Made by a program: the position numbers. Below are positions 36,001 to 48,000 of a DNA stretch of 64,000 nt, one piece after another (within the stretch, counting starts at the first letter, position 1; every line of letters begins with the position of its first letter). Source of the DNA: an uncultured Pseudomonadota bacterium (GTDB lineage: Bacteria; Oederibacteriota; Muellerivitia; Muellerivitales; Muellerivitaceae); assembly GCA_963770835.1 (NCBI GenBank), contig CAVYRH010000003.1, positions 1 through 64,000 of the forward strand, given 5' to 3'.

Positions 36001-39000
36001 ATTCGGGTGGCGTATCGGTTTGCCATTCCGAGCTTTGAACTGCGAAAAGGCAGGTAATACAGCGCAGGAACAACCACCCTCATCCCAACCTTCTCCCCTT
36101 AAGGGAGAAGGAGCCAGTCTCCCTCGCCCCTTGGGGGAGAGGGTGGGGTGAGGGGTGCCTTGGAGGTTGTTCCTTAGTAAGGAAAAAAGTCGATAGGCTT
36201 GGTTTGCGACAAGCTTGTGGCGCGTTGGCCCAAAACGACGAAAAACCTGAGGTTGCCACGTCGGCAATCGCCCCGATTGGGGCGCCTCCTCGCAATGACA
36301 CCAATCATTACGACATGGTTCAAGGTTCTCGCAATGACAACTTAAATAAAAGGCAGGGAAGTGCCGTGAAAGTTCTCATTGTGAAAATCGCCGCGGTCGG
36401 GGACGTGGTCATGGCCCTTGCCATGCTGGAACCCTTCCTCCAAAAGGACCCGGACGCCCAAATTACCTGGGTTTGTGGCAAGACGGTTGAACCCCTCCTG
36501 CGGCAGGTTGGAAAAATACATGAACTCATCGTGGTGGATGAAGCCAAGCTGTTGAAGGGCGGGTTCATCCCAAAAGCCCTGGCCTTGGCCGGCGTTTGGG
36601 CCAAGCTTTTGGGGAGGCGGTTTGATTTGGCGGTGACGGGCCACTCGGACCCGCGCTACCGGCTTTTAAGCCTTCCGGCCTCCGCGGCAATCCGCCGGGG
36701 TTTCGGCAAACAAGCGGACGGAAGAACAGGGCCGGTGAGCGGACGGTATCACGCGGATGAATATGCCCGCCTGGCGACGGGGGCGGACGGCCCAACGGCG
36801 GTAAAAGCTTCCATCCCCATCCTTCGGCTGCCTTTACCGGCGGAGTTGGAACAGATTCTCCAGCCGGGAAAGAAAATCGTCGCCCTCGCCCCGGGCGGCG
36901 CCAGGAACATCCTGAGGGATGACGCCCTCAGGCGATGGCCGCTGGAAAATTACGCCCAATTGGCGGAAAAGTTCCTGCGGGACGGGTTTCAAGTGCTGGT
37001 GACGGGCTCTTTATCGGACTTTTGGATCAGGGAATCCTTCAAAAATATGGCCGTCACCGATTTAGTGGGCCAAACACCCCTTCCGGACTTGATCGCCCTT
37101 TATGGGAAATGCCATCTGGTGGTCACGCACGACAGCGGGCCGCTTCACCTGGCTGTCGCATCGGGCGTTCCGGTTTTAGCCCTCTTCGGCCCCACCGTTC
37201 CGATGGAGAAGGTTCCCGTCAGTGAAAAAGTCAGCGTGATTTGGGGCGGAGAACATTTGGCCTGCCGGCCCTGTTACGATGGAAAAAATTACGCCGATTG
37301 CAACGACAACCAGTGCCTGAAAAGCGTCGGGGTGGAACGGGTTTATGCCGAGGCCAGCCGGATGCTCCGCGGATAGGACCCGCATTGGACAGTCAAAAGT
37401 AAGTTGGAGTGGCATTTTGGAAAATCAAATTGACATAAAAGAGACCATGAAAGTCCTTTTGAACGCCTGGTGTGACCGTCGTTGCTTCCGTGCACTTCGG
37501 TTCATTTTACAAGGATGGCCGATGCCCATGGGTTTGACTGACGATGTGAACAACTTATTAACCGCCCTGAAACACGTCCGGTCAATGGCAAGGGATGAGT
37601 TGACTGAAAAGGAGCTATATCAAGTTGACGCCATAGTGATTCAAGTTGAGAAAGCCTTAAACCGGTGAATTGAACAATTTGAAGTTGTCCACGATAGGGA
37701 CCCGGATTGGACAAGGAATCATGGTAAAGATAGAACCGTTTTAATAAGAAGAAGGAAAATCGATGATTCGCTTGAGGGAACTGGTTGAGGGGGATGCGGA
37801 TATTCTTTTTCCCTTAATTTTTAAAACGCCTGTTACCGCTACCATATTGTGGGACGGACCCGATTCCATTGATTCTTACAGGAAAGCTATGGATTTGCGG
37901 CAAGCGCAGACACGGAACGGGGAAGCCCATTTTTTCGTCATCACTGAAGTAAGCACAAATAAACCTATCGGAACTATAACGATTCGCCCGGAAGAGAATA
38001 AGCTCCGGGGCGATATAGGACTTTGGATTGGGTTGCCCTTTCAGAGAAAGGGTTATGGTACCCAAGCCGTGAAAGATATTGTGAAATACGGTTTCGAAAA
38101 ATTAAGGCTTCAGAAAATTGAGGCGACAGTCTTTTTGGGTAATTTGGGCAGCCGAAGAATTTTCGAAAAAAACGGGTTCGTTTTAGAAGGAACAATCCGA
38201 AAGGCCTCATTAAAGCGTGGGAAGCTTATTGATGAATGGCTTTTAGGGATTGTTGAGTAAATATCTTTTCAATAGTCTAAGTTTGCCTACGACGGGGACC
38301 CAGAGTGGACATCGTGCCAGAGGAGGGTTTGCAGAGCCAGCAGGTGAGGGAGTAGGCCGATGAGGGTCAACCCAAGTCCTGACCAGGTAATCACCAGAGA
38401 GCCTGGAAGTCAGCCCCCGGCGTAGGATCGAGAGGTCCTGCCCGAAACGGGGTCATAAACCTCATTTAGTGAGGGAACAATCCAGCAGTCCGCAACATCA
38501 AGTGAATCCTGCCGCTTCGTGAATGGGACACCGAAAGGTGCAAGGGGATGCCGAGCCGCGTGTCTACTGGCGAAGGCCACGATCCCGCTGAAGAATCTGG
38601 TAGCAAGCGGGGCAAGTCCTCCGGAGTATGGGGAACGGAATGTTGGAAAGGCTATGCAAGCAAGCTGGGAGATCCTACCCGCCAAAAGACTTGCCGCTAT
38701 AAGGCTAAAACCGAAAAGAGGCAAGGGTGGGAGGAAGTCGGAGGGGGTCACAGTACCGATGAAGGGGTGGACAACAAAACCACCCTGAGGGAAGGACCCC
38801 TGCTTCAACCATGTGTCTCAAAGAAGGTAGGCGCTGGAGCATGCCCCAAAAGGGCCAACAACTCTGTAGTACCAAAGCGCGAGGCCTTTGACAACAGGCA
38901 CTATGCCGAGCGGCCAAGGGGGAAGTCGAACCTGTAAAGCCGCCGGAGGAGAGGTTGTCGGAAAGCCGTATGATCGAAAAGGTCACGTACGGTTTGACGA

Positions 39001-45000: not shown

Positions 45001-48000
45001 TCCTACTTCGATCCCCACGTCCCCCTGTGCCATCCATGTTTGGCCCGATCCCTTTAACCCCCAATATGCTATTGGCGGAACCTTAAAAGTCGGCTGTCTC
45101 CCGCCCGGGGCCACGGTGTCTTTTTATACTGTTTCGGGAGAACTGGTGAGCCAAGTGAACGAAGCCGGTGGAATGGCTCAATGGGCTGGAACCAACCGCC
45201 AGAACCTATTGGTTTCGTCGGGAATTTATTTCTACGTCATCCAAAACGGAAGTAATGTTCTGGGGCGGGGCAAGTTTCTGATTAACCGTTGATTTTGGCT
45301 GTCCGCGACGGGGACCCATCGTGGACAGGTAACATGATGGCCATTCCACCGCCGGGATTAAACTATTCCCGGTGAGTAGCCACTCATAAGGAGGAATGAC
45401 CATGAAACAGATTAGCAAAAAAGGATTCCAAGGCAAGGAGGTATCCAAGCGGGACGCCGTGTTTGTGGGGCTCGATGTCCACAAACGAAGTATTTACGTA
45501 GCAATCAGGATCAATGGAAAGGAAACCGGAACCAAGTCTGTGCCCGCGGATTGGGAAGCTGTGGTGAAGGTTCTGGAGCCTTACCGAAAAGGGTTAAAAA
45601 AGGTCGTCTACGAGGCAGGACCTACTGGCTTTGGCTTGGCACGTCGCCTTCGGGAAGTGGGATACCCATTGGACGTCATCGCCCCGAACAAAACACCTCG
45701 TGTAGCTCAGTTGGAAACAAAATCCGACCGGTTGGACTGCCGCAAGCTGGCGGAGTACGCCGAAAAGGATCTCTTGCGGGCTGTGGCGATCCCAACCCTC
45801 CAGGAAGAAGCGGATCGGCAAGTGGTGCGTTTGAGAAACGCGATGGTGGAACAAAAACGCAAGGCCAAACAAAGGATCAAAAGCTTTTTCCTCCAATATG
45901 GATTCAAGGAACCTAGAGGGCTGGATTACTGGACCCACGAGGCCATCGGAGTTTTGCGGGATATGGAACTGCCGCCGGCCCTGAGATTCACGTTGGATAG
46001 CCTATTGGAAGATCTCTTTTACTTTGATAGGCAGCTTAAAGACGTGAACATACGTTTGCGGGTCATGATGAAGGACAAGGCCTACGAGAAAAAGGCTAAG
46101 ATCCTCAGGTCCCACCCGGGAGTGGGTGAAGTAACGACCCTGCAAATGTTAACGGAGATTTACCAGCCGGAGCGCTTTCAAAACGCCAAACAGGTGGCGG
46201 CTTACGTGGGGTTGGCCCCAAGGATCAGGCAAAGCGGAGAAACTCGAAAGGAAGGCCATTTGCAGAAGGCCGGAAAAGGAACCTTGAGGGCTACCTTAGT
46301 TGAAGCTGCCTGGTCATGGATTCAAAAGGATACCCAGGCCAACCGCGTTTTCCGCCGGTTCGTCCGTAATACGGGGCATGTCAACAAAGCGATTGTGGCA
46401 ATGGCTCACAAGCTTTTGATTCACCTTTGGACTATGTTGGTTCGAAAGGAAGTTTATCGGCCCATGCTCTAAAGAGGTTTCAGCCTCAGTTTCGTGATTC
46501 GACCCCTTAGGAATGACCACGAGTTTTAGCTGTGCCTTAGGCACGTTGGACAGGTGGTGGCTTCCCTCAGGATTATCGAATTCTTATCTTGTGCCTCGAG
46601 CACGAATAGCAGCGTGAATCCACGAAACCAAAAGGCTGACCGTAGGAGAAAATTGGACTTGAGGAATGGCCTCATAGCAGGAATGGCCTCATAGCAGGTA
46701 AAATTGGCTCAGCTGGGGGTTGGTCAACATGACCTGGGGGGATAAAAAATGGAAGATTTGAAAGAAATCGCCCAAACGATATGCCGGTACCCCCTCATAT
46801 CGGACAAATCGATTCAAGATTATTTAAAAGAATCCGGATTTATGGACCACCGGAAGAACATTTGTGTTGAAGACTTCAAAGAATATTTAGAAGGCCACAA
46901 GGATTTAATAGATAAATGGATTGGGTGGTCAGACAAACGAACGGATTTTGGGTGGACATTCAGCAGTTGGGGGCAGGATGGATATTATCGGATCACTGGA
47001 TATGGCATCAAAGATCCCAAACCGAATCTGGGCCATGAATTAACATTTAAAAGTTCAATTGATGCGGTTGCGACCTATATCAGTCTCGAAATGAATGCTT
47101 GGGCTCAGTTTAACGAAAATAAGCAACCCGGAAAATGGTGGTAACGGATTTTTGATAGTTCATGGTTGTCCGCGACGGGGACCCTTCGTGAACAACGAAA
47201 ATAATGGATAATGGTATTCAGGCACTTTCAGCATAAAGATGGTTTACAAAATTTGGGGGGCAGACCACATGGACTTGCTTATTGATACTTACGGTACCAA
47301 GATCGGCGTAAATGGCGAGCGCATCGTCCTTTCTTTTCCGAAAGTTAAAGAGAAAAAAGAATACCCCATCCATAGACTGGAGAAAATAGTCATACTGCGG
47401 CCGGCCTCGCTCACGACTCACGCGGTTCAGCTCGCGATTGAGCACGATGTTGATATCGTCTATCTCGGTTCTTTTGGCAAGCCCATCGGAAGACTATTTT
47501 CAAGCGAACCAAAAGGGCTGGCGAGTCTTCGTAAAGCGCAACTGGAAGCGTCAACTTCGCTTGAGCGATCGTTCAAAATCGCGAAAGAATTAGTGCGGGG
47601 CAAATGCGCTAATCAGCTCGATCTACTCCGATATCTCGCGTACCGATATAAAAAGGATGTGGGGACCGAACTCTTACAAGCGCAGACCCTTTTTGATGTC
47701 TTGGACAATGTCCCGTGTTCGGAGAAAGGCAAGGAGCAACTCCTTGGTACGGAAGGATACATCGCGGACAAATATTTCAGCGGGTTAAAAAAATTCTATA
47801 GATTCCCGGGCCGAAAACCACAAGGCAGGGACCAGTTTAACAGCGTACTGAATTATGGTTAGGGCATCCTTTACAATGAAGTCGAACGGGCATGCCTTTA
47901 CGTCGGTCTTGATCCATATCTCGGCCTCTACCACAGTGAACGCTATGGTAAGCCTGCCCTCGTTCTCGATCTTGTCGAAGAATTCCGCGTACCAATCGTC

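Follow-up and report, generated by a model that had tools for sequence, protein, structure and literature searches.

Two unrelated lineages of putative group II introns (intron A and intron family B) and an IS1111-type element (IS1) occupy fixed positions of a single 28-bp repeat, the gene-cassette boundary of an uncultured soil bacterium. We are fairly confident of this reading, in which all of them probably reach the site by RNA-DNA pairing, the introns retrohoming through predicted EBS1, EBS2 and EBS3 elements and the IS through a predicted seek/bridge RNA. A first-pass annotation of this genome had already proposed that unrelated elements use fixed positions of the site, which was borne out for intron A (8 of 10 distinct copies), family B (15 of 19) and IS1 (4 of 5), and the specialisation of two introns and one IS110-family element is now strengthened by covariation, by empty alleles and by the same junctions in other genomes. 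It had missed that a second IS (IS2) is aimed at the B lineage as a whole and interrupts its RT gene, that IS1 uses both edges of the site, that the B ends are non-canonical and covary, and that a third intron lineage sits at another position in relatives.

The cassette site and its candidate recombinases

A profile scan found 89 intact copies of the site in the genome; 88 of them scored above 18 bits, a score that nothing reached in either of two shuffled genomes. The repeat is a nearly perfect palindrome (13-GA-13) and its consensus is without attC boxes. The window, by which we mean the whole 64,000-nt stretch analysed, holds unoccupied plus-strand sites at 37686..37713, ahead of a GNAT cassette gene (37763-38260), and at 43454..43481, ahead of an IgGFc-binding cassette gene (43613-45292). 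Occupied plus-strand sites lie at 38284..38311 (ORF-less intron B), 39416..39443 (consensus sequence, RT-bearing intron B) and 45300..45327 (IS1 at the right edge), and the site at 47167..47194 (plus strand) closes the run, with a cas1-bearing cassette next. Counts from a promoter and terminator scan of positions 37300-47300 were below those of shuffles, and viral contigs gave 0 exact matches to an 18-nt pattern of the site. Positive GC skew was found on the forward strand of the site in 79 of the 89 copies; we rejected it as an explanation of orientation because contig skew was patchy and confounded with gene direction.

Like integrons and CALINs, the arrays are co-oriented and consist mostly of single-gene cassettes, many are without a nearby recombinase, and the same cassette recurs in several arrays; unlike in those systems, the adjoining enzyme is a short serine recombinase. 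In 5 of 5 cases the site or an A-split site lay 8-40 nt behind the stop codon of this gene, and in 0 of 5 cases was there a site near a full-length homologue. The repeat would offer an abundant, intergenic and horizontally moving target, and is probably the crossover site of the shortened serine recombinase, although only 5 of 41 genomes yielded this enzyme whereas 21 have the site, which counts against such a role. A solo Xer-like tyrosine recombinase (C11) is not supported as the enzyme of the site: although its close orthologues and the site mark one and the same clade, a site adjoined the gene at 0 of 12 loci. This protein, the sole one so scanned, fell below the NCBIfam integron-integrase cut-off, and no IntI exceeded the cut-off among the tyrosine recombinases inspected.

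Intron structure and intron A

The introns gave Rfam matches to D1 and D5/6, and their predicted folds contain an AGC triad in D5 and a bulged A in domain 6. Their EBS elements covary with the flanks that they would pair with, and we classify A and B as putative group II introns of IIB type for which splicing and retrohoming are predicted. The AGC triad, a 7-nt EBS1, EBS2 (in part), sense orientation and a non-attC site all set them apart from class IIC-attC, whose marks are a CGC triad, a short D5, an EBS1 of 3-4 bp, the absence of EBS2 and insertion into the bottom strand of attC. A third lineage (C), present in relatives, inserts after nt 19 of the site and carries an EBS1 of UGGGUC or CGGGUC where its targets are GACCCA or GACCCG. 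Sense-strand introns would be spliced from the transcripts of cassettes and enter new sites by reverse splicing, their cDNA synthesis being primed at the fork, as in other introns without an endonuclease.

Intron A is 1941 nt long. The first-pass counts of 12 copies of intron A and 14 of the ORF-less intron B are correct as assembled, and correspond to 10 and 13 distinct copies. The claimed insertion between left arm and core was found for 10 of the 12 intron A 5' ends, with the 3' ends resuming at the core, but given the 13-GA-13 palindrome this wording holds only if the site is read as 11-6-11; the other 2 lie in a look-alike. The 8 distinct copies at sites split them after nt 11. In the window the left 11 nt of such a site, which hold IBS1, lie at 1710..1720, the intron at 1721..3661 (GTGCG..AC, in keeping with the GUGYG..AY rule) and the other 17 nt at 3662..3678, all on the plus strand. 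The EBS1 that had been noted as 8 nt at nt 213 is predicted here at intron nt 214-220 (1934-1940), and an intron A relative with a different target carries a matching EBS1. At EBS3, however, intron A has an A, which does not match the G found next to the intron at every site insertion, a point against our reading. The RT (433 aa, 2234-3535) has no endonuclease domain and grouped with B.th.I3, the only g2 reference in a quick tree, at an SH-aLRT support of 99, which places it by sequence in IEP variety g2 (formerly class F/unclassified).

The element that holds the two off-site copies of intron A had been called IS1182, a family of long transposases with DDE_Tnp_1_6. It encodes a 312-aa transposase with DDE_Tnp_1 as its best match and DDE_Tnp_1_6 below the cut-off, and its reading frame reopens at the called intron boundaries; judged by the transposase sizes usual for these families, IS5 is the more likely label.

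Intron family B

Family B inserts after nt 28 of the site in 15 of 19 cases. Its ORF-less form is 800 nt long and showed 14 5' ends, 12 of which follow a site (intact, variant or split by A) and the other 2 a look-alike; 11 of its 13 distinct copies are at sites. The copy at 38312..39111 (plus strand, TCGTG..GC) follows a site whose last 7 nt form IBS1, with EBS2 predicted at 38523-38527, EBS1 at 38561-38567 and EBS3 at 38629 (U; next exon base A). Another, at 3679..4478 (plus strand), stands behind the very site that intron A splits at 1721..3661, so that the double occupancy reported earlier does occur. Intron B stands at 3 of 8 A-split sites and at 12 of about 91 others, numbers too small to call an excess of double occupancy.

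As had been claimed for one copy, a GH43 reading frame opens when the intron is left out, to 710 codons from stop to stop, and does so only with an 800-nt TC..GC intron directly behind the arm. A boundary one base further left (start ATCGT, inside the arm) was rejected, since both this frame and the empty allele demand TC..GC; that allele, found in DNA contigs, skips exactly 800 nt without ambiguity. Empty paralogues of B insertion sites were not found within this assembly.

Four RT-bearing relatives share the position of the ORF-less form, as the first pass had it, but its 395-aa RT is a 432-aa RT cut by IS2. Two further RT-bearing copies with another EBS1 lie off-site. The RT-bearing copy of the window (39444..42944, plus strand) has C as EBS3 (39759) ahead of exon base G, and an RT gene from 39969 to 42790, of 432 codons when the IS is subtracted. 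EBS3 was U before A in all scored B types, with C before G in this copy. In all 14 types, two of which have other target sequences, EBS1 pairs with 6 or more of the 7 exon bases.

The two termini of the B introns are UCGUG..GC (9 of 14 types) or G..AC, with no mixed pairs among the 14 types, and the family as a whole does not follow the GUGYG..AY rule. The two states alternate among close relatives, with at least 2 changes on the tree and 3 as the best estimate, and U1 with penultimate G may be a compensatory form of the usual contact between G1 and the penultimate A. The B RT formed a separate clade (support 100), apart from those that contain the E, g1, g2 and g3 references, in a quick tree whose references did not extend to classes A-D, g4-g6, CL or ML, and its nearest plasmid relatives are listed as 'Unclassified' (PMC8919778, Table 3). 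The 800-nt form would have arisen by deletion and be mobilised in trans by an RT of family B; against naming a particular helper, all three of its closest RT-bearing relatives are cut by IS2.

The two IS1111-type elements

IS1 (45328..46696, plus strand) is a 1369-bp element with its transposase at 45396-46472; its predicted guides for the right flank and for the site arm lie at 46522-46531 and 46546-46553. IS2 (39991..41513, minus strand) is nested after codon 7 of the RT gene, with its transposase at 40298-41443 and predicted guides at 40229-40236 and 40187-40193. Empty alleles in DNA contigs skip 1369 nt and 1523 nt, respectively. Membership in IS1111 is indicated by a DEDD/IS110 transposase, subterminal inverted repeats and a long downstream non-coding region, in which the covarying loops place the target guides, top-strand complement first.

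The first-pass claim that 5 of 7 IS110 left ends lie at one and the same edge did not survive: five left ends are real and four of these are at the site, two at the right-arm and two at the left-arm edge. A sixth (C16:21040) has no IS sequence behind it, and a match on C19 is due to chance. The guide loops change with the flanks in three IS1 relatives and two IS2 relatives, and IS1 likely finds its site through the predicted seek/bridge RNA, which, as for the IS1111 group, would be transcribed from the circle junction and needed for transposition. Its right-flank guide matches only part of most flanks, which counts against this reading; IS621, as described in PMC11208160, tolerates guide mismatches poorly.

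Nesting of an IS110 within the ORF-less intron was confirmed, but not its confinement there. All six IS2 copies lie in B introns; three, that of the window among them, interrupt RT-bearing copies, where they follow codon 7 of the RT. IS2 would be guided to the start of this gene and likely inactivates the RT. The consequences for the cassettes may differ as well: intron A would disable the site as DNA, and B and IS1 would leave the 28 bp whole and join the neighbouring cassette. That they hitchhike on cassettes is conjecture, as no cassette with the same intron turned up at two places.

Alternative explanations

The elements might instead recognise the hairpin of the single-stranded palindrome, as IIC-attC introns do, and not its sequence. 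The nearly perfect inverted repeat would suit this, as would the 304 genome matches to IBS1 plus G, which show that the preference of intron A exceeds its 7-nt EBS1, and the EBS2 pairing, which was found in only 8 of 14 B types and thus also counts against the full EBS scheme. We nonetheless consider recognition of a hairpin improbable, given that B is found behind A-split sites, where the left arm is gone, and at look-alikes that form no palindrome, that EBS1 and EBS3 covary with the target, that D5 bears the AGC triad, and that in ribozyme features the RTs do not resemble class C.

The host system might have domesticated the introns for cassette building, an idea put forward for IIC-attC introns. 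This would account for the convergence of three lineages, each with ORF-less forms, on one site, and for the 23 of 23 distinct site insertions that are co-oriented with the cassette genes. It seems very unlikely to us, because no intron junction was detected in most of the family genomes that have the site, intron A splits the site, IS2 cuts the RT, and nothing was seen of an intermediate in which a lone site is joined to a new gene.

Cassettes do move, as an identical 863-bp cassette at 4 places with different neighbours each time attests, and one insertion of each element could have been multiplied passively by cassette recombination or gene conversion between sites. There is scant probability of this: the sequences on either side are different for every distinct copy, copies lie in the GH43 gene and in an IS without a site, site variants differ around identical introns, and an empty allele with identical flanks exists. 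An assembly artefact can be practically dismissed, for although two contig-end copies are duplicates, as had been suspected (C24 ends with the sequence that opens the window, and C4 with the one that opens C11), the others are uniquely flanked, and other genomes and four sequencing runs contain the same elements.

Sequence-specific pairing at a fixed site remains our preferred explanation. A more far-reaching version of it, which we put forward tentatively, envisages a layered community of RNA-guided parasites on a non-integron serine-recombinase cassette system. Three IIB-type lineages and an IS1111 element would have divided one 28-bp crossover site independently, one lineage would home actively while flipping between G1/A and U1/G, and IS2 would be programmed to the RT start, its precise excision serving as an on/off switch for ORF-less spread.

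Relation to known systems

Integrons already provide known cases of cassette-site parasitism. Group IIC-attC introns such as S.ma.I2 are a lineage without endonuclease, specialised on the site at which gene cassettes recombine (PMC3001079, PMC4424553, PMC7923331). Compared with what these sources describe, the present introns are IIB-type with a 7-nt EBS1, EBS2 and EBS3, comprise three lineages at three positions, lie in sense to the cassette genes in this genome and use a 28-bp palindrome, not attC. Elements of the IS1111-attC group (ISPa21, ISPst6, ISKpn4), with their seekRNA or bridge RNA, have subterminal inverted repeats and a long non-coding region behind the transposase in which a top-strand complement precedes a bottom-strand match, and target one end of the cassette site (PMC11187229, PMC11208160). 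IS1 and IS2 have IS1111 traits, but relative to those accounts the IS1 target is a non-attC palindrome usable at both edges, and IS2 targets the start of an intron RT gene. Cassette-site parasitism is therefore not peculiar to integron attC hairpins, having arisen at least four times on a different site through what appears to be sequence-specific pairing, and the convergence of the parasites lends independent support to the 28-bp repeat being a working, mobile recombination site.

Many ORF-less introns beside RT-bearing relatives, with diverged specificity and nesting in other mobile elements, are described from Thermosynechococcus elongatus (PMC2882425). The ORF-less/RT-bearing mix is common to both; set against that description, the convergence on one recombination site and the IS-cut state of the nearest RT donors are features of our genome. 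As to the intron ends, UHB.I2 has UUGCG..GU (PMC7923331), and we found TTGCG..GC or ..GT in four class E-clade lineages, with boundaries set by flank divergence. U1 with a penultimate G is thus a shared feature, but family B alternates both states among close relatives and has C at position 2. This paired switch in recently mobile copies is a natural experiment on a contact known chiefly through mutagenesis, and the two IS elements appear to offer guide loops that were reprogrammed in nature and whose targets are known, one of these being the enzyme gene of another mobile element.

Among 31 family genomes the B junction pattern was found in 7 and the A junction pattern in 6, with 0 hits for reversed-pattern controls. 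The pattern used on metagenomes was loose, and BLAST against B domain 1 led us to drop 116 of 120 loci as chance; the other 4 are real B introns, and all 4 lie behind a site. In genome G043, 3 of 10 RT copies are reverse-oriented.

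Group II introns at the 28-bp site

We concluded that the specialisation of mobile elements on the 28-bp cassette-boundary palindrome, TGTCCACGACGGG-GA-CCCGTCGTGGACA, is real. Across the studied genome (4.58 Mb, 26 contigs; window C3:1-64000) there were 85 copies of the site with up to 6 mismatches and 89 by profile, and a profile scan above 18 bits returned 88 sites versus 0 in two shuffled genomes. Neighbouring sites less than 6 kb apart were co-oriented in 57 of 59 pairs, the longest ORF between co-oriented sites followed their orientation in 55/57, and one identical 863-bp cassette was present at 4 places. 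Of the 24 other genomes of the family, 19 had the site, as did the one sister-family genome (1/1); it was found in 0/15 more distant genomes. At free sites genome-wide, position 29 (+1) was a purine in 74/77 and position -1 a pyrimidine in 80/87, so that the palindrome extends to 30 bp; since T never occurred at position 29, introns beginning with U may still affect recombination.

Intron A (1721-3661), inserting after nt 11, was assembled in 12 copies, 11 identical and one with a one-base indel. As the first-pass annotation had claimed, 10 of the 12 had the left 11 nt of the site upstream and the core resuming downstream; its suspicion of assembly duplicates at contig ends was also justified, and once two duplicates were removed, 8/10 distinct copies of A lay at sites. 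The two remaining copies were antisense inside a DDE transposase gene, the 312-aa frame of which reopens when the intron is left out. The junction recurred in 6/31 family genomes; G044 and G014 had forms lacking the ORF. In a quick tree the RT clustered with B.th.I3, a g2 reference, at support 99. The predicted EBS1 (CGUCGUG) paired fully with the site, and an A relative with a different target had a matching EBS1. By position, the predicted EBS2 (ACACU) and EBS3 (A) of this genome's intron were a poorer fit to the site than to the look-alike in the transposase gene, which suggests that the guides may be a compromise between two targets. At L074:5691-5720 (G043), an A-type 5' end was joined imprecisely to a site, with extra core bases and the first G absent, in a copy that looks truncated; L199 (G014) held two ORF-less A-type introns, tandem or nested.

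For intron family B, the 14 previously reported ORF-less 5' ends were recovered, 13 of them distinct and 11 at sites, and four of six RT-bearing copies occupied the same position at sites, also as reported. Because a purine stands behind every 3' end the boundary was ambiguous; the GH43 frame, the EBS3 pairing and an empty allele settled it as TC..GC directly behind nt 28. Solely with this boundary was the interrupted GH43 frame open, over 710 codons, an opening that had been noted before with a count of 701. The predicted EBS3 was U ahead of A, and C in the single copy with G as the next exon base; a 956-nt DNA contig omitted exactly 38312-39111 and was otherwise identical. In 14/14 types at least 6 of the 7 predicted EBS1 positions paired, also in those retargeted to other sequences; EBS2 paired in 8/14. 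The B junction pattern was seen in 7/31 family genomes. All 23 distinct A and B insertions at sites here (23/23) were co-oriented with the cassettes; in G043, 3/10 intron copies were reversed. In a twintron at L015 (G021), an ORF-less B intron was itself interrupted by a different, RT-bearing intron. In the window, the cassette that comes after the ORF-less copy at 38312-39111 encodes (39131-39385) an 84-aa protein that we take to resemble a helix-hairpin-helix domain. The B RTs formed a separate clade, and their nearest plasmid relatives appear as 'Unclassified' in Table 3 of PMC8919778.

The 14 B types had ends UCGUG..GC (nine) or GYGUG..AC (five), with 0 mixed. On the domain 1 tree the ends switched in 3 changes, at least two forced by strong branches, and the end label did not cluster significantly (78/500 shuffles as low, with kin not independent). 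U1 with a penultimate G has precedents in class E-clade loci and in UHB.I2 (PMC7923331), and a non-Watson-Crick contact between the first and penultimate intron bases is cited in PMC4238363. We found no report of a within-lineage switch of these bases in the literature searched, which covered few subscription papers and not the figure on intron boundaries in PMC4028801.

A third lineage, unrelated to A and B, inserted after nt 19 of the site, with two RT-bearing copies of 1930 nt in G004 and two ORF-less copies of 712 nt in G014; its EBS1 follows the variable base of the target.

IS1111-type elements

IS1 (45328-46696) and IS2 (39991-41513) both had subterminal inverted repeats, and each had a long non-coding region downstream of the transposase gene; this is the layout described for IS1111 in PMC11187229 and PMC11208160. 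The first-pass annotation had put the left end of IS1 behind the site, at one edge, in 5 of 7 cases; we counted five left ends, two at the right edge, two at the left edge and one elsewhere, and both G043 copies of an IS1 relative were at the left edge. The predicted IS1 target loop contains TTGGACAG, matching the site arm, the predicted right guide matches the flanks partially, and in G043, G024 and G002 both guide segments change in step with the flanking sequence. A 17-bp tandem duplication of the IS1 right end (46663-46696) marked this genome's copies and was missing from G043.

The six IS2 copies were identical and all occupied a single position, shared by three variants of intron B; as these variants are just 92-96% alike, IS2 must have inserted more than once. 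Its nesting in B introns had been noted for the ORF-less form and extends to RT-bearing introns, where it interrupts, after codon 7, an RT gene of 432 codons of which G043 has an uncut version. The predicted IS2 loop matches its target, and two IS2 relatives in G024 have different loops and different targets. Empty alleles of both elements occurred in DNA contigs; run X1 may be the source sample, and the sides of the IS2 joint were short.

Proposed mobility and recombination

Beyond these observed positions, identical copies, empty alleles and covarying guides, the introns would probably move by retrohoming, as known En-minus introns do (PMC4424553), and the 800-nt form may be mobilised in trans by another RT, for which PMC2882425 describes a precedent. 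The three nearest RT donors of the ORF-less form were all cut by IS2; candidate helpers are the three RTs of 431 aa (66-67% identity) or alleles free of the IS elsewhere in the population. Insertion of the IS elements would be RNA-guided, by analogy with IS1111 elements. Intron A would disrupt the site as DNA, and B and IS1 would leave the 28 bp whole and become part of the adjacent cassette. In its working the whole set resembles IIC-attC introns plus IS1111-attC as portrayed in PMC3001079, PMC7923331 and PMC11187229, although these introns fall outside IIC-attC and the cassette system outside the integrons. No paper describing these elements at this site or in this phylum was found in the literature searched.

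The single resolvase-family match in the genome ended 14 nt from a site. In the serine recombinase homologue set (one further match was cut by a contig end), four of five short members had a site within 34 nt past the stop codon, the fifth (G020; L347/L018) had one split there by intron A, and full-length members had one in 0/5. The short form, a candidate site enzyme, was found in just 5/41 genomes. A single Xer-like recombinase on C11 (L152:6053-7117), conserved in 23/24 family genomes, the same clade as the site, scored below the XerC, XerD and XerS cut-offs and did not lie near a site; we saw no canonical pair of XerC and XerD. Six tyrosine integrases on C1, C2, C5 (two), C10 and C26, paralogues with 55-80% identity, mostly ended just ahead of tRNA-like sequence.

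Neighbouring genes

In three arrays (47239-48611, C15 and C16), sites were followed by a cassette that combines cas1 with a 111-aa ORF (no Pfam match). Its cas1 was whole on C15, and the copies in the window and on C16 each had an internal stop; a second, partial cas1 lay at 60753-61484. A run X2 contig continued past the site at 45327 with a cas1-cassette-like start, not IS1, which suggests that cassette order differs in that sample. Behind the array, 48816-60101 carried adenine methyltransferase, DndB-like, SRAP and Y-family polymerase genes with many ORFs without a Pfam match, and is possibly an integrated element.
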